The notes below the pieces were generated by a model that worked only from the letters and a program-made list of their open reading frames with translations, made no database searches and was not told the DNA's origin. Of a stretch of 64,000 nucleotides of DNA, positions 14,514 to 21,833 are shown piece by piece. Source of the stretch: an uncultured Thiothrix sp. (lineage in GTDB: Bacteria; Pseudomonadota; Gammaproteobacteria; Poriferisulfidales; GCA-002705445). Position 1 is the stretch's first letter, and each line of letters begins with the position of its first letter. Both the position numbers and the translations under genes were made by a program. Location of the stretch: the NCBI GenBank assembly GCA_902595225.1, contig CACJPG010000002.1, positions 1,151 through 65,150 on the forward strand, given 5' to 3'.

Positions 14514-14702
14514 CTAGATAGGGATTGCCTGGGATATTGTTTCATGAAACTTCTCAATAATAATGTTTATTTCATTTCCAAAATAAATATACGCAAGTAG
14601 TATTAATCCACCTATAAGAAATATAAAAGTTAATAAAGTATAAGACAGCATCTTTATAAATAAGGTTGGGATAAATAAAATAATTTTCAAAATTAAACTC
14701 AA
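14514..14702 (-). CDS. hypothetical small membrane protein (two hydrophobic helices, TTG start)
   Basis: ORF only. Overlaps the upstream ORF stop in a TTGA junction. The hydrophobic pattern is plausible, but no known family and no ATG start. Confidence 0.3.
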   Translation of the reverse strand: MSLILKIILFIPTLFIKMLSYTLLTFIFLIGGLILLAYIYFGNEINIIIEKFHETISQAIPI

Positions 14703-15286
14703 ACTAAATTCCTTATAAATTCAAAGTAAAAGTAAGATTGCGTTGAAACTATAATAAGTAAGAAAATTAAAACTATTGAAAATAGAAAGCCAAAAAATAT
14801 GCCTCGCGATCTTGCATAATAGTCATCTAGCGTAACCTCAGATTCACTAACATCATAAGATGAATTATCTAAATATTTAGCCGATTTATTTGTTTGGGCA
14901 TTATATTCTTTTATAAAATCATTTAATTTTTTTTCTATAGATTCAATTCTTTTTAATCTTAAATTATCTGCGGCAGCATAACCTCTTTTGTTTAAATTAA
15001 TCCTGCTTCTAGATGGCATAGTTGATACATAAGTATCAGCGTCACTTTTCTCTTTTTTGTTAGATATTCTGTTGTTAATTCGAGATATATTATTTTCAAT
15101 TTCATGAATTTTTTTAAAAATTACATTATTGCTATCTGAATTTATTTTTTCGAAAGCATTATCCTTTGATAATAAAGATATATTATGATCTAACTCCTCT
15201 AGCTTATTCTCTAAATTAGCAATAATCGAAATTAACGATAGTTCTTCGTCAGATATATTGTTTTTTTTGTTATCGTTCCCGCTCAC
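14699..15286 (-). CDS. hypothetical tail-anchored coiled-coil protein
   Basis: 195 aa. Asn/Lys/Glu-rich heptad-like N-terminal region (LENKLEELDHNISLL, IENNISRINNRISN) and a single C-terminal TM (IFFGFLFSIVLIFLLIIV). No family recognised. Confidence 0.55.
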   Translation of the reverse strand: MSGNDNKKNNISDEELSLISIIANLENKLEELDHNISLLSKDNAFEKINSDSNNVIFKKIHEIENNISRINNRISNKKEKSDADTYVSTMPSRSRINLNKRGYAAADNLRLKRIESIEKKLNDFIKEYNAQTNKSAKYLDNSSYDVSESEVTLDDYYARSRGIFFGFLFSIVLIFLLIIVSTQSYFYFEFIRNLV

Positions 15287-15329: not shown

Positions 15330-15932
15330 TTAAAAAAACTTTTTATATCTTAGCCAAGAATATGTGCCAGTTATTGATAAAATTATTAATCCAAGGGTAA
15401 CAAGGTCTACAAGAGTTACTCCAAATGTTCCAAAAAGTCTACCAGAATGCAAATCAACAATTACTCTCTCATATGTTATTGTTTTACTTATACTTTTATC
15501 TTCAATTATTTTTTTAAGATTTCCTGGGAGTATATTTTCTTCTAAACTAATTTTTACATTCTTTGGGGTCTCAGTGTGGCCTAAGTCAATAATTTCTCCG
15601 CTAGAAGAAACAGTGATTATATGACCATCATACAAAATTACATAATTATCATTCTTTTTATAAGCAGCTCTTAATGTTGTTATATTATTTACAATTCTTT
15701 TTTCTTCAAAATATAAATTGTTATTACAGATTGAAATCCACTTTGAGCTGATTGGAGCAGATGATATTACACAAGGCTTGATTCCATAAACATTTTTTGC
15801 GAATGTGCTAGAAGCATAAGTTTGCCGTATTTTAAAATCTTCTGCATGCTGAAGTAAGGTTCCTGTGACTGATAATACCAATACAAAAAGAACTAAAACA
15901 ATACCTAGAAATCTATGAATTTTTATAATCAT
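15330..15932 (-). CDS. PepSY-associated-TM-helix-like membrane protein (half-size, 2 TM)
   Basis: N-terminal IHRFLGIVLVLFVLVLSVTGTLLQH and C-terminal DLHSGRLFG...LSITGTYSW resemble the paired His-containing helices of the PepSY_TM/PiuB/FoxB family. Confidence 0.6.
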   Translation of the reverse strand: MIIKIHRFLGIVLVLFVLVLSVTGTLLQHAEDFKIRQTYASSTFAKNVYGIKPCVISSAPISSKWISICNNNLYFEEKRIVNNITTLRAAYKKNDNYVILYDGHIITVSSSGEIIDLGHTETPKNVKISLEENILPGNLKKIIEDKSISKTITYERVIVDLHSGRLFGTFGVTLVDLVTLGLIILSITGTYSWLRYKKFF

Positions 15933-16018
15933 AATATAATTATAATTTGTATTATATAAAAAAGAAACTTTCCTAAGATTTTGATATAGTTATGTATATA
16001 AAATAATTATAGTTAAAA

Positions 16019-17011
16019 ATGAGTAATAAAATTCTTTTAAAAATTATTATTTTTTCTTTCAGCTTTCTATTAATTAGTTGTAATAATAATAGCAGCTACT
16101 TAATCTCTGGGAATGCTTTTGGAACAATTTACCATGTACAAATTGAGTCTGACAAAAGGGTTGATACTAGTAAAGTAAAGTTCAATATTAGCAATATAAT
16201 CTATAATATTGACGTTATAGCTTCAAATTATTCAGAAAGTTCAGAAATCTCCCGTTTTAATAATTTAAATAGCACAAATTTTATATTTATATCATACCAT
16301 TTGTTTGAATTACTCAAAAAAGCAAATCAAGTTAGTGACATAACAGATGGATACTTTGATATTACAGTTGGGGATCAGAAAATAAAGAAAGGCTTTTATA
16401 TAAATCCAATTGAGTATGTAAAGGGAAAGGATAGAGGCTTTAATTATAAAGATATCATTCTCTCAGAAGAGAGAAGATCAGTAAAAAAGAAGATGAAAAA
16501 TATAAATATTGATTTATCAGGAATTGCAAAAGGTTATGCTGTTGATCTAATAACAAATTATCTAATAAGCATAGGGATCAATAATTTTATAATTAATATT
16601 GGTGGAGAAATAAAAGCTCACACAGATAATGAAGAATATATAAAAATATCAATCGATGATCCCTCCAAAAAAAATCAATCTGTTGAAGATATATTCCTAA
16701 ATAAAAAGGCTATAGCGACATCTGGCACTTATCAAGACCATGTGGAGTATAAAGGCAATAAAATCAGTCATATAGTGAATCCAAAAAATCTTAAAAATGT
16801 TTCCGATCTCAGCAGACTTGTTGCAGTAATTCATGATAGTTGTGCAACAGCAGATGCAATTGCAACTGGCTTTATAGCCATGGAAGCTAATGACATTGTA
16901 AATTTTGCAAATGAAAAAGGTATTGCCTTAATGTTTCTAAGAGAAATCAACGGAGTTGTTGAGAAAAGATACTCAAAAAAGTTTATAAAATATTTATCTG
17001 AGAAAGATTAA
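16019..17011 (+). CDS. apbE: FAD:protein FMN transferase (flavin transferase), lipoprotein
   Basis: Lipobox LLISC. ApbE family blocks DLSGIAKGYAVD, AIATSGTYQDH, SHIVNPKN, ATADAIATG. Confidence 0.88.
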   Translation: MSNKILLKIIIFSFSFLLISCNNNSSYLISGNAFGTIYHVQIESDKRVDTSKVKFNISNIIYNIDVIASNYSESSEISRFNNLNSTNFIFISYHLFELLKKANQVSDITDGYFDITVGDQKIKKGFYINPIEYVKGKDRGFNYKDIILSEERRSVKKKMKNINIDLSGIAKGYAVDLITNYLISIGINNFIINIGGEIKAHTDNEEYIKISIDDPSKKNQSVEDIFLNKKAIATSGTYQDHVEYKGNKISHIVNPKNLKNVSDLSRLVAVIHDSCATADAIATGFIAMEANDIVNFANEKGIALMFLREINGVVEKRYSKKFIKYLSEKD

Positions 17012-17514
17012 ATCTTTGAAGCCAAAAACAATGATAATTTAGAGAGTTTTCTCATTGAATTAACTGACATTGTCGCACCAGATATATTTGCCAGTCTATT
17101 TGTTAGCTTATCCTTACTTTTTAAACTATTACCTCTTATCTGGTTTAAAAAGAAATCATATGCAACTTCTCCGCCATAGTTTTCACGGTAAACAAGAACT
17201 TTTGCATCTGATATTTTATTATTCTCTACAACATAACCTGTTGTTATAAATTCATGCTTTCCTATAGCTTCTAATATGAAGCCGACTTTATTACCATTCT
17301 TATAATATTTTATTGCTGGAAGATGATACGTATCCTTCAAAATGTCTTTTACTCCAGCAGCAACATCATCTTTCAAAATAATATACTTATGAAAGGGCAC
17401 TTCAGAAACACCTAGTGCTTGTTTTAGAAAATCGTCTTTATCCATTATTACCTTTTCAGCATTAATAGAAAAAGATAACGTTAAAAGATATATTGTTAAC
17501 AAAAATTTTTTCAT
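17008..17514 (-). CDS. secreted FMN-binding-domain protein (predicted ApbE substrate)
   Basis: Signal peptide MKKFLLTIYLLTLSFSINA. Flavinylation-type motif NISGATMSVNS as in NqrC/RnfG FMN_bind domains. Convergent 4-nt overlap with apbE. Confidence 0.75.
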   Translation of the reverse strand: MKKFLLTIYLLTLSFSINAEKVIMDKDDFLKQALGVSEVPFHKYIILKDDVAAGVKDILKDTYHLPAIKYYKNGNKVGFILEAIGKHEFITTGYVVENNKISDAKVLVYRENYGGEVAYDFFLNQIRGNSLKSKDKLTNRLANISGATMSVNSMRKLSKLSLFLASKI

Positions 17515-17599
17515 GATTAATTGTAATATTATTTAAGAATATTTTTCACTGTATAAAATTAAAATAAAATCTGTAAAAAACTTTTAAATTTTACAACTT

Positions 17600-17740
17600 A
17601 AAAAAAGGATGGCTAGTTAACGTCGAAGTTTAAATATTAAGAATGAAAAGAACAAGGAGAATTTCTTCAAATCATTCGTTTTAAAGTTTAGCTCTTACTG
17701 AGTGGAGGAGAAAAAACTAAACTTTATTTGTCAACTAGCC
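17600..17740 (-). ncRNA. structured RNA element: three-helix junction ending in a U7 tract (porin 3-prime UTR / complex terminator / candidate sRNA)
   Basis: Minus-strand helices: P1 is 11 bp (17740-17730 with 17621-17611). P2 is 10 bp (17726-17717 with 17691-17682). P3 is 6+6 bp (17677-17663 with 17652-17641). Two G-U pairs would be A-C mismatches on the plus strand. The tail is AUCC-UUUUUUU. Confidence 0.45.
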
Positions 17741-17784
17741 AAAACACGCCCTAATGTGTTGTTATTGTAAAATTATTATTATTC

Positions 17785-18990
17785 TTACCATACATAACCC
17801 ATACCGATATGTATTCCATCGGCATCACTTCCACCATCTGGGTTAGAGTATTCTTTATCATAGTAGTTCACTTTAACTACAGTATCTGTGCCCATAGGCC
17901 AGTAACTAATACCGTATTGCATTACAGTGTACATTTTCGAAACAGCGTTACCTGAAACAATAGAGTTGTTAATAAACACACCTAAGTTTCCAGTTCTTTT
18001 TGACGCTTCTAAGAATGTACCTTGTTGCTCGTCAAGTCCTGCTGCGAAAGCCGCACCAGATTCGTCTTTACCATCGAATTCAGCTTGAACGTGAATAGCT
18101 CTAACTTCAAAGCCATCACCAAATCCATATATTGCTGAAGCACCGTAAAGATCTAACTTATCAACGTTATCAGATGATACTTGAGTAAAGTCAGATTGAT
18201 GATTGTAGAATACAGATGCTTTTAAACCAGGGAAACCTGTATATGTAAGTCTACCTGTGTAAGCTAAGTCATTTGCAACAGCACTAGCTGATTTTTGACG
18301 ACCTGCTCTGATGTCCATAGCTGTTGTACCTTCAAGACCTTCAGAAACCATCAATTCAAGCATTATACCATTGTCTGATCTGTAAATAAGTTCAGCACCA
18401 CCAGACCACCATGTTGTAGGAATTAAGTACTTCTCTACATCATTTCTCTCAACACCATAAAATGTTGGTGGTTCATGGTTTTCATTCAAAATACCTACTG
18501 GCATAAGAATCACACCAAATCTTGTTTGTAAATTGTCAGTAAGATCAATTTCAACATACATTTGTTCTAATTCAACTTCACCAGGTCCTGATCCATCAGC
18601 TGTATCTTTTGCTAATGCGTGCTCTAATTCGAATTCAGATCTAAATCTTACTGTGTCAGAGTAGTCATACCCAAAGAATAAAACAAATCTATGAGCATCA
18701 AGTGATTTAGATTTTGCACCTGCATCGGTTTCAGTGTCGTTATAGTGTAATTCACCATATCCACCGAGTGTGATTTTAGAGAACTTCTTAGCTGCCTTTG
18801 CAATTGAAGATTGAGAAGCTTCCGCCATCTCACCCTGCATTTTTACAGCCGCTTTTAATTCATTAATTTCAGCTTTTAACTGCTGAATGGTCTCCATAGC
18901 AAGATGAACTTCTTCTTCAACATGCTCTAGAGTTTCAGCAAATGTTACTGGCGTAATCGCTAGTAAAGCTGCTAACGCTAATTTTTTCAT
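17785..18990 (-). CDS. outer-membrane porin with N-terminal coiled-coil segment
   Basis: Signal peptide ending FA-ETL, about 50 aa helical segment (IQQLKAEINELKAAVKMQ), then alternating beta-strand pattern with a C-terminal aromatic residue (GMGYVW). GC-richer codon usage than neighbours. Confidence 0.7.
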   Translation of the reverse strand: MKKLALAALLAITPVTFAETLEHVEEEVHLAMETIQQLKAEINELKAAVKMQGEMAEASQSSIAKAAKKFSKITLGGYGELHYNDTETDAGAKSKSLDAHRFVLFFGYDYSDTVRFRSEFELEHALAKDTADGSGPGEVELEQMYVEIDLTDNLQTRFGVILMPVGILNENHEPPTFYGVERNDVEKYLIPTTWWSGGAELIYRSDNGIMLELMVSEGLEGTTAMDIRAGRQKSASAVANDLAYTGRLTYTGFPGLKASVFYNHQSDFTQVSSDNVDKLDLYGASAIYGFGDGFEVRAIHVQAEFDGKDESGAAFAAGLDEQQGTFLEASKRTGNLGVFINNSIVSGNAVSKMYTVMQYGISYWPMGTDTVVKVNYYDKEYSNPDGGSDADGIHIGMGYVW

Positions 18991-19030
18991 TGTTATCTCC
19001 TAAAGATTAATTATTAATAATTAGAGGTGA

Positions 19031-19059
19031 ATAGTAATAGTTCTGAGAAGCATTTGCAA
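19031..19059 (-). promoter_or_regulatory. candidate promoter of the coiled-coil porin gene
   Basis: Minus strand TTGCAA (19059-19054), 17 bp, TACTAT (19036-19031). A strong SD AGGAG lies 6 nt before the ATG at 18990. Confidence 0.3.
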
Positions 19060-19233
19060 GTCTAAATAGGAATTATTCTCAACTAAAATAAATAACTTAT
19101 TAAAATCATATATTTATATTGAAAAAAACTTTATAATATTAGCAAATTATTGAGTTATTATATAAGAAAAATGCTTAAATTATGCGATTTTATAAAAATT
19201 TACTAAAAAAACTAAATTTCTAGATAGCCTAAT

Positions 19234-19683: not shown

Positions 19684-19790
19684 TAATATAAGTTTAACAT
19701 TTAGCACAAAATAGATATTGAAATTTTTTTGCTTACGAATAATAATCAGAATCATTAAGGAGTGGCAACAAAAAAAAGGATGGTGATATT

Positions 19791-19970
19791 TTGAAGAAAA
19801 TAATTCTTATTTTCACATTTATTTTTTCGATCAATGCTCATGCTCACACTTCAAGTGATATTTTCCATTTACATATCAATGAATACTTGATAGCTGCATT
19901 GTTACTCTCATTCGTTCTTGCCTTTTATTGGATTAGGACAATTTTAAAAAAAGGAGATATAAATGTTTAA
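19791..19970 (+). CDS. unannotated 59-codon His-rich membrane peptide (TTG start), overlapping the sodN start
   Basis: Below the ORF-track length cutoff. Translation MKKIILIFTFIFSINAHAHTSSDIFHLHINEYLIAALLLSFVLAFYWIRTILKKGDINV: signal-like N-terminus with AHA, four His in 12 residues, one TM. The stop overlaps the sodN ATG (ATGTTTAA). AAGGA lies 10 nt upstream. Confidence 0.4.
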   Translation: MKKIILIFTFIFSINAHAHTSSDIFHLHINEYLIAALLLSFVLAFYWIRTILKKGDINV

Positions 19971-20732: not shown

Positions 20733-21833
20733 CTAAAGGGAACATGCATCGTTTTTAAAATTTGATATTGTTTCTTTCACGCTTTCTGCCGCCGCTTTTT
20801 TGTCATTAGAATCTTTAAATAGCTCTGCTTGAGCAAAATGATGCATAAATAATGGGCTGTTCTTAACTTCTTTTCTCAAACAAAACTTATCTTCAGAAAA
20901 TAAAATATCGTCCCAAGTATATCTTACAATGTCCCAATATTCTTTTGTTGAGTTCCAATAATCATATGCTGAATTAAAATCATAATTTTTCACACGCTGG
21001 TATCTTGCTAAACCATACTCTGCGCCAACAAAACTTGATGGATTTTTAATTTTATCATTACTTTCCTCCATCACCCAACCCCAAGGAAGTATCGAAATTT
21101 TATTAATTCCTTGTAATAAATCGTAGTCGTTTCTTATAGTGTGCTCTCTTCTTGGCAGCGGACGTTTTGTAATTTGACTAATCCATCTTGAGGCACCTTT
21201 TTCATGAACCCATGTCCCGTATGACTCGTATCTTGGGGAATCATCAACCTGATAAACAGCCTGGCTCCAACTTCCTCTAATATTTTTATGATCTTTTATT
21301 ACCCATTCATTATTTCCTTGGAATTCTAAAATTTTTTTATCTTCATAAGTCCAATCCTGCCTCCAATGTTTTTGAACGAATGGTCCGCGGATCACACCTT
21401 TCTTATCTTTTGTGAACATAGCGAGGATATGCTGAAGAGAAATAAAATTTTCACTATTTTCAATAACTATTATTGTTTCAGTACCCCATGATTTATAAGG
21501 ATTATCTAAATTATAGTTTGGGTTACTACCAAAGATTTCTGTAAATTCAAAGTTAGCTTTGTGTTCGCCTGCCATTGCTAAGATAGCTAACTTATCCTTC
21601 TCTTTTTTGCTAAATGTGTTTTGAATTTTATCAAAGCTTTTGGAAATTTTTGTATCAATTTCCGGCTCTAGGCCATTTGTAGAGCCTCCTCTTGACTCTT
21701 GAACTGGATGCCTATCTAAAATCCAATTTAACTGACTTTGATCTATTTTATCTTTGACTGGACCATAGCTATTGTTATCGGCAAAAGCTAAAGAAAAAAC
21801 TATAATTGACAAAAAAATTAATAAAGATTTCAT
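20733..21833 (-). CDS. hypothetical secreted protein (Trp-rich, 366 aa)
   Basis: Signal peptide MKSLLIFLSIIVFSLAFA. Long intact ORF. No family I can name with confidence. Confidence 0.6.
   Translation of the reverse strand: MKSLLIFLSIIVFSLAFADNNSYGPVKDKIDQSQLNWILDRHPVQESRGGSTNGLEPEIDTKISKSFDKIQNTFSKKEKDKLAILAMAGEHKANFEFTEIFGSNPNYNLDNPYKSWGTETIIVIENSENFISLQHILAMFTKDKKGVIRGPFVQKHWRQDWTYEDKKILEFQGNNEWVIKDHKNIRGSWSQAVYQVDDSPRYESYGTWVHEKGASRWISQITKRPLPRREHTIRNDYDLLQGINKISILPWGWVMEESNDKIKNPSSFVGAEYGLARYQRVKNYDFNSAYDYWNSTKEYWDIVRYTWDDILFSEDKFCLRKEVKNSPLFMHHFAQAELFKDSNDKKAAAESVKETISNFKNDACSL

Follow-up and report, generated by a model that had tools for sequence, protein, structure and literature searches.

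PepSY-like flavinylation systems were previously defined by a membrane protein of family PF03929 or PF16357, encoded in a cluster with the flavin transferase ApbE or a secreted FMN-binding protein, and a role in iron reduction or assimilation was proposed for them (Meheust et al. 2021, PMC8238504). Repression by Fur has been reported for some of these clusters (PMC8238504). The cluster described here, at positions 15330-18990 of a 64,000-nt stretch of DNA from an uncultured Thiothrix sp. (contig CACJPG010000002.1; the whole stretch is hereafter called the window), is a variant of this known, bioinformatically defined system: its membrane protein of 200 amino acids (aa) scored above the cutoffs of PF03929 and PF16357, and genes for ApbE and for an FMN_bind-domain protein adjoin it. 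Our results showed that a porin gene, the FMN_bind gene and the PepSY-like gene compose a tight co-directional operon that is conserved across Gamma-, Alpha- and Betaproteobacteria, and which probably serves reductive iron assimilation. The genes and the operator were located as follows in the window (TM, transmembrane; FAD, flavin adenine dinucleotide; FMN, flavin mononucleotide).

15330..15932, minus strand: 2-TM PepSY_TM-like inner-membrane protein, 200 aa (Pfam PepSY_TM and predicted structure)
16019..17011, plus strand: ApbE FAD:protein FMN transferase, predicted lipoprotein, 330 aa (Pfam ApbE and lipobox LLISC)
17008..17514, minus strand: secreted FMN_bind-domain protein, predicted ApbE substrate, 168 aa (motif NISGATMS)
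17515..17784, minus strand: spacer of 270 nt between the porin and FMN_bind genes
17785..18990, minus strand: outer-membrane porin, probably of the OprO/OprP superfamily, 401 aa (signal peptide and N-terminal periplasmic coiled coil)
19041..19084, minus strand: pair of adjoining operator sites resembling Fur boxes (51-94 nt 5' of the porin ATG)

An earlier reading of the window's sequence (hereafter the original prediction) had proposed that the four genes form a single module. Re-reading of the open reading frames (ORFs) and their translations bore out the position and motifs of all four, and the stop codons of the convergent ApbE and FMN_bind genes were found to overlap in the TTAA at 17008-17011.

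Several traits set the cluster apart from typical PepSY-like flavinylation systems. The latter mostly carry a DUF2271 substrate (2833 of 3220), often together with DUF4198, whereas an FMN_bind substrate and a dedicated porin occur here; a profile scan of 9 neighbouring window proteins gave no match to DUF2271 or DUF4198. Unlike in those clusters, ApbE is usually not adjacent in loci with the porin operon. A porin partner is mentioned neither in the text of PMC8238504 nor in that of the follow-up study (bioRxiv 10.1101/2024.03.13.584918), and PF07396 and PF13609 did not occur in a part of the PMC8238504 supplements amounting to about 399,000 characters, which does not prove that porins are absent there. 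The Fur-repressed genes SO1188-1190 of S. oneidensis were considered as orthologues and rejected, their annotations (a PepSY TM helix protein and a CbiK-like periplasmic protein) suggesting the DUF2271/DUF4198 subtype.

To follow the distribution of the operon, species-representative genomes were searched for its porin. Of 599 pattern matches, at least 495 proved by tblastn to be porin relatives, and the best 80 of these were scanned with hidden Markov models; the counts below refer to these scans, with the informative loci as denominators. Chosen by their porin, the 80 loci do not extend in scope to the frequency of FMN_bind or PepSY-like genes without porin. They comprise cultured Shewanella, Colwellia, Ferrimonas and Aliikangiella as well as metagenome-assembled genomes (MAGs) labelled Rhodospirillaceae, Rhodocyclaceae, Nitrosomonadales and Hydrogenophilales (Alpha- and Betaproteobacteria).

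FMN_bind gene directly 3' of the porin gene, same strand: 73/74 informative loci
PepSY-like gene next, same strand: 64/69 informative loci
ApbE gene within 3 kb: 6/53 informative loci

The gaps between the three core genes in distant loci were often 4-40 nt or replaced by overlaps. This arrangement is far beyond chance, because the identical gene order returns in dozens of distant genomes. The scan of neighbours in the 80 loci found no further gene family conserved nearby. Two distant loci (L009 and L010) displayed DUF6746, Porin_O_P, FMN_bind, PepSY_TM and ApbE genes, overlapping and on one strand, the ApbE gene of L009 thus lying within the operon; their PepSY-like protein was only about 26% identical to that of the window and their porin 43% (E = 5e-82). 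Close relatives, with PepSY-like proteins 57-61% identical, contained in succession DUF6607, porin, FMN_bind, ApbE (on the opposite strand), PepSY-like and 192-aa protein genes, adjoined by rpoD and dnaG, a gene order that could be plain synteny. The co-occurrence on which the original prediction depended was therefore recovered for the trio (64/69 loci), and its module survives as a core of porin, FMN_bind and PepSY-like genes, but ApbE does not belong to this core; with adjacency in 6/53 loci, the window layout is a minority one. The porin linkage, flagged at the time as one of the less described parts, turned out to be the most robust feature (FMN_bind after porin in 73/74). Two MAG contigs labelled 'Halobacteria archaeon' (L013 and L017) also hold the proteobacterial porin operon and are probably mis-binned or mislabelled.

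The core proteins and their described relatives

The 200-aa protein bears the motifs IHRFLG, LLQH and DLHSGRLFG. It matched Pfam PepSY_TM (PF03929) at 47.4 bits (cutoff 28.8), the match being confined to profile positions 179-294, the C-terminal half, and PepSY_TM_like_2 (PF16357) at 27.7 bits, above cutoff; these scores speak against its belonging to an unrelated family. The AlphaFold2 model (pLDDT, the predicted local distance difference test, 93.8) placed TM1 at 2-28 and TM2 at 165-196, with eight beta strands at 57-119 and then short helices between them. According to this model, the periplasmic domain is an eight-strand beta structure and not a PepSY fold. A Foldseek search with the model returned only weak beta-propeller-blade matches, none at E<=0.001, and FoxB was absent from the 50 matches listed. 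The two-TM PepSY-like assignment of the original prediction thus holds for the family match and the two TM helices, but not for the modelled periplasmic domain.

This protein is not an isolated case. An exhaustive search yielded 5125 members at E<=1e-3 and 1270 at E<=1e-30, the latter figure counting representative protein clusters at 50% identity. Among the best 150 of the family, 148 were 239-289 aa long and the other two 339 and 364 aa. The "half-size" PepSY_TM form is a large family of its own, and at 200 aa the window's protein is short for it.

The best described relative is FoxB of Pseudomonas aeruginosa (7ABW), in which conserved His residues bind two b haems within a bundle of four helices (bioRxiv 10.1101/2021.01.28.428567). 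The family profile of the 2-TM protein aligned to FoxB at TM1 and TM4, and the HRxxG at TM1 and HxGR before the last TM of FoxB, FpvG, FhuB, FsrB and HiuB align with the 2-TM protein. As in these reductases, conserved His would lie at the two membrane faces of the 2-TM protein, and its predicted periplasm-facing reductive role is of like kind. H6 and H162 were conserved in 64/64 sequences and H29 in 62/64, H6 and H162 falling in the segments aligned to FoxB TM1 and TM4. From this conservation, the 2-TM protein is predicted to conduct electrons through b-type haem. Since a single chain supplies three His, two haems with bis-His ligation would call for an oligomer, and a dimer would be the simplest route to a FoxB-like bundle, given two helices and three His in each chain. 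Yet, where FoxB possesses four TM helices and a pair of PepSY domains, the model of the 2-TM protein shows two such helices and a single beta domain of eight strands. FoxB is also encoded beside a TonB-dependent transporter, whereas the 2-TM protein partners a porin and a flavoprotein, such transporters occurring nearby in about 6/80 loci. In two loci a cytochrome b561-like membrane protein follows FMN_bind and replaces the PepSY-like gene (L041:11723-12424 and L036:12394-12945). This two-locus displacement, with scores of 28.1 (L041) and 19.3 bits (L036) below the PF01292 cutoff of 30.1, suggests that the PepSY-like slot calls for a membrane b-type cytochrome.

Another related system is VciB of Vibrio cholerae, an inner-membrane protein reported to promote ferrous uptake through periplasmic Fe(III) reduction and cited as a PepSY-like homologue (PMC8238504). 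It shows no association with flavinylation components (PMC8238504), and a 2026 comparison of AlphaFold3 models grouped it with proteins of at least 4 TMs, against two in the 2-TM protein.

The 168-aa protein combines an N-terminus resembling a signal peptide with the motif NISGATMS. Its own match to Pfam FMN_bind (PF04205) was just below cutoff (20.3 bits, cutoff 22), but its Shewanella and Colwellia orthologues reached 31.8 and 36.4 bits and many homologues carry a precomputed PF04205 assignment. The motif D-x-[IV]-[ST]-G-A-T-[LM]-S was present in 68/70 orthologues, and T148 was invariant in 16 aligned sequences. Thr148 within NISGATMS is therefore the predicted flavinylation site. Against the PDB, the family profile gave weak matches to RnfG and NqrC chains. 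Shared with the window protein's family are the FMN_bind domain, a Thr in an SGAT motif (the predicted ApbE target in this family) and the periplasmic side. However, NqrC and RnfG are anchored in the membrane as parts of large complexes that pump ions, whereas the window protein is free-standing and secreted, with a cleavable-looking signal peptide, and it scored far under the RnfG equivalog cutoffs.

ApbE matched its Pfam family (PF02424) at 179.9 bits over profile positions 1-265 of 266. The NCBIfam ApbE model gave E = 9.5e-37 and 126.7 bits, under the equivalog cutoff of 498; judged by these scores, the window ApbE is a family member and not an E. coli-type equivalog. The PepSY_TM, ApbE and FMN_bind assignments of the original prediction are in agreement with the profile scans, that of FMN_bind through the orthologue scores, the window protein being marginal. 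No NCBIfam model names the porin, the FMN_bind protein or the 2-TM protein.

The porin is less easily classified by profile. Porin_4 matched it at 24.7 bits, under the cutoff of 27, and the window porin itself had no match to PF07396 (Porin_O_P), which 25/34 orthologues match; two of the orthologues displayed 45 and 36 bits (cutoff 20.9). The AlphaFold2 model consisted of a 16-strand barrel preceded by N-terminal helices 21-54 and 60-70, in keeping with the N-terminal coiled coil of some 50 aa announced by the original prediction. Foldseek aligned this model with Omp32, OprP (2o4v) and OprO (4rjw) at TM-scores of about 0.6 (0.61 for OprP/OprO); searched against PDB sequences, the porin profile returned spurious coiled-coil matches alone and no solved porin. 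Conservation of the porin is unusually high: Glu, His and Arg are invariant at many positions, as is the internal loop PVGILNExHEPPTFYGVERN. OprP and OprO thus resemble it in the modelled 16-strand barrel and through the orthologues that match Porin_O_P. They possess an Arg/Lys ladder, whereas the invariant residues of the window porin family are mostly Glu and His with few Arg, and selectivity may differ accordingly; control of the window porin moreover appears to be of Fur type, not Pho type. We take its N-terminal coiled coil to resemble those of ScrY and DcaP. The modelled periplasmic N-terminal helical extension is a FapF-like feature, and one orthologue each gave a weak match to Sugarporin_N and to the FapF N-terminal family.

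Operator, transcripts and genomic links to iron uptake

A consensus Fur-box scan was run over 260 nt upstream of the porin in the loci, with random windows and shuffles as controls. The mean best match was 13.3/19, against 10.8 in random windows and 11.1 in shuffles, and the Fur-like site recurred at -50 to -95 of the porin, also in upstream regions of 55-62% GC. A Gibbs-type search without prior in 75 orthologous upstream regions converged on the motif AAATGCAAATCATTCTCATTT, which fits the Fur 7-1-7 box TGATAAT-N-ATTATCA; the Zur core does not fit. In sequence form, the Fur-like operator site of the operon is the following.

Fur-like operator site of the operon: AAATGAGAATGATTTGCATTT

Under split-half cross-validation, 61/75 upstream regions scored above all 25 same-locus control windows, with a mean of 19.0 bits versus a mean control maximum of 10.0. 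By its resemblance to the published consensus, the operator is a putative Fur box. The weight matrix located two sites in the window, of 13.8 bits at 19041-19061 and 11.3 bits at 19064-19084, the whole 64 kb containing 13 sites of >=9 bits. This pair was kept at about -50 and -90 in the close relatives L001, L006 and L011. A plain consensus scan of the window alone gave 11-13/19, and it took the weight matrix from the comparison of loci to reveal the sites. In place of the earlier statement that no Fur box could be called confidently, that matrix now supports an operator that is weak in the window but conserved in position.

The operator sites overlap a promoter-like element, TTGCAA (-35)-17-TACTAT (-10); the end of an RNA contig, at 19024, falls 7 nt past the TACTAT hexamer. 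TTGCAA-17-TACTAT is probably the porin promoter; a general sigma-70 promoter scan was uninformative in this AT-rich DNA (35 found, 29 expected). Near-identical RNA contigs from four independent marine metatranscriptomes spanned 17616-19024, which takes in the porin and some 170 nt of the spacer. To judge by these contigs, the porin may be the abundant transcript and the 270-nt spacer may end or attenuate it, the spacer being probably a porin 3' untranslated region (UTR) or attenuator. In other lineages the gap between porin and FMN_bind is 4-200 nt. The contig end at 17616, within the spacer, fits a structured 3' UTR or terminator.

In L009, the DUF6746 gene upstream of the porin (L009:1066-1437) is preceded by a Fur-like site of its own (L009:941-961, 31 bits), and DUF6746 is from this site a further candidate member of the Fur regulon.

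Links to iron uptake were also encountered at the level of gene content. In two members of the 2-TM family a FeoA domain was recognised at the C-terminus, with 40.7 bits in P0157 and 54.1 bits in P0177 (cutoff 23), and feoB directly follows the P0177 gene. In L023, L027 and L063, feoB is the gene immediately 5' of the porin and has the same orientation. In a gammaproteobacterial MAG, fur (L034:2742-3203; PF01475, 134 bits) was located about 2 kb upstream of the porin operon, which there has no PepSY-like gene after FMN_bind. Genes bfr and exbB occurred near the operon in L041 and L073, and L041 also has a bfd-like gene (by translation alone). Iron as the substrate, put forward by the original prediction, gains independent support from the conserved Fur-like operator, from the FeoA fusions beside feoB and from these feoB, fur, bfr and exbB neighbours.

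The 2-TM PepSY-like protein fused to C-terminal FeoA and followed by feoB is encoded at L091:807-4024 and L092:600-3817. The FeoA-fusion contig also codes for MamC, a MamS/MamX-like protein and an MFS-Ferric_reduct protein, and appears to represent a magnetosome gene cluster.

Proposed function and alternative explanations

The operon most probably encodes an iron-starvation-induced, envelope-spanning reductive iron-assimilation module. Under low iron, Fur repression would be lifted and the dedicated porin made. This 16-strand barrel, probably of the OprP superfamily and presumably trimeric, would admit iron species to the periplasm, for instance inorganic or weakly chelated Fe(III). The 2-TM protein probably oligomerises, most simply as a FoxB-like four-helix dimer, and its three invariant His would bind b-type haem, so as to move electrons from a membrane or cytoplasmic pool to the periplasmic face. 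The electrons would then pass to the FMN attached covalently by ApbE to Thr148 of the FMN_bind protein. The flavoprotein would finally reduce Fe(III) to Fe(II) for uptake by an inner-membrane ferrous importer, which would be FeoB in many relatives.

How siderophore-less marine bacteria acquire iron from seawater, where it is present at nanomolar to picomolar levels, is a long-standing question. The operon is widespread (porin relatives in at least 495 species genomes, 1270 clusters of the 2-TM family), and none of the three core proteins has a curated family name. Carriers are in culture (Colwellia psychrerythraea ND2E, several Shewanella, Ferrimonas and Aliikangiella), which makes the hypothesis directly testable. 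If true, it would couple a flavinylated periplasmic protein to a dedicated outer-membrane channel, and 2-TM "half" PepSY_TM proteins would gain a defined role.

A number of points weigh against reductive iron assimilation. The Fur-like sites of the window are weak (13.8 and 11.3 bits), and the weight-matrix scan detected no operator at its PepSY-like gene. The operator could belong to another regulator of the Fur family. The operon is interrupted in the window by the divergent ApbE gene, and no fur or feoB gene was found within the 64 kb. None of the four metatranscriptomes provided an RNA contig over 15153-17411, where the redox genes lie, although contigs cannot prove absence. The superfamily to which the porin probably belongs is known for anion (phosphate) selectivity. 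All components are defined bioinformatically, not biochemically. Neither are all PepSY_TM proteins iron enzymes, CrpH supporting copper-dependent oxidases (PMC13038864). Operator and Feo linkage nevertheless favour iron over copper here.

More ambitious, and distinctly tentative, is the possibility that the three proteins make up a reductive iron-uptake route that spans the whole envelope and needs neither siderophores nor TonB. The flavoprotein, the beta domain of the 2-TM cytochrome or both would dock on a stalk formed by the trimeric coiled coil of the porin, the pore would be metal-selective and lined by Glu and His, and iron would be reduced at the pore exit and passed to the ferrous importer. 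Such a route would parallel, in bacteria, the reductive Fre/Ftr pathway of yeast, and could explain inorganic iron acquisition by streamlined marine bacteria.

Flavoproteins under Fur control can be iron-sparing substitutes and not iron reductases, as when flavodoxin replaces ferredoxin. The operon might by analogy encode an iron-sparing periplasmic electron branch, in which the flavoprotein replaces an iron-rich carrier (e.g. a c-type cytochrome) and feeds another redox enzyme. Fur-type control fits sparing switches as well as uptake, the soluble cofactor of the module is FMN, and flavinylated proteins have many extracytosolic redox roles (PMC8238504). Yet, the dedicated and extremely conserved porin at the head of the operon would be left unexplained, as would the FeoA fusions with adjacent feoB. 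The scan of neighbours in the loci found no conserved terminal reductase gene with the operon, and the proposed membrane partner itself requires haem iron. We regard such a sparing role as unlikely.

Equally improbable is a periplasmic reductase for another metal or oxyanion entering through the OprP-type channel, such as Cu(II), Mn(III/IV), chromate, selenite or iodate. The PepSY_TM protein CrpH, already cited above, serves copper-dependent functions (PMC13038864), the porin probably falls within the Porin_O_P superfamily, and close relatives have znuA and a Fur-family regulator gene in the vicinity of the cluster. One porin orthologue also weakly matched ExtI, the porin of a selenite/tellurite operon, but at 23.7 bits this is far under the cutoff of 150. 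The znu neighbourhood is limited to the window's clade, the operator resembles a Fur box and not a Zur box, and the fusions and neighbours (Feo, Bfr, Fur, ExbB) all have iron functions.

A defence or repair system of MsrPQ type, where the membrane haem protein and the flavoprotein would deliver electrons to oxidatively damaged periplasmic targets, is very doubtful. PepSY-like and MsrQ-like cytochromes do have a common TM core (bioRxiv 10.1101/2024.03.13.584918), and the window has the nickel superoxide dismutase (Ni-SOD) genes sodN and sodX between its porin and DUF6607 genes, with a Fur-like site upstream of sodN at 19792. However, sodN is absent from the cluster in L001-L006 and in other lineages, the scan of neighbours revealed no conserved MsrP-like or peroxidase partner, and porin and Feo linkage would have no role.

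That the genes are mere neighbours, the porin being a general diffusion pore and ApbE serving Na+-NQR or another substrate, would suit an ApbE that is adjacent in 6/53 loci and may be the cell's general flavin transferase, the presence of window genes on both strands with a 270-nt spacer and the RNA contigs showing the porin only, but it is strongly disfavoured, and hardly credible, in view of a trio co-directional in 64/69 loci over three proteobacterial classes and of a porin that, unlike general porins, is more conserved than its partners (43% versus about 26% identity).

Flanking genes in the window's own clade

Two further features flank the cluster in the window.

14514..15286, minus strand: tail-anchored coiled-coil protein (195 aa) and, overlapping with it, a two-helix ORF of 62 aa, on the downstream side of the PepSY-like gene
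20733..21833, minus strand: secreted DUF6607 protein (Pfam DUF6607, 214 bits)

The position of the 195-aa protein is occupied in L001-L006 by a 192-aa ORF, followed by a small 45-aa ORF. Similarity to the window's protein was shown only for L011 and L012; an ORF of this type was absent from the remaining loci, and profile scans gave no family match. The 195-aa protein is lineage-specific and its membership in the module uncertain. In L001-L006 and L011 the DUF6607 gene immediately precedes the porin; it was not found near the porin in other loci, so its synteny is limited to the window's own clade and its membership is likewise uncertain. In two close relatives (L001:544-4681 and L006:619-4755), DUF6607 lies between the porin and a cluster of znuA, a gene for a Fur-family regulator (152 aa) and znuCB. 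DUF6607 could be a metal-related periplasmic protein.

The sodN-sodX insert between porin and DUF6607 was absent in L001-L006 and present in L011. A Fur-like site of 14.0 bits was located at 19792-19812, in the divergent region (19756-19962) between sodN and a gene for a putative lipoprotein of 173 aa, and a weaker one of 10.4 bits at 19737-19757, at the 5' end of the latter gene. To judge from these sites, Ni-SOD may also be iron-regulated.

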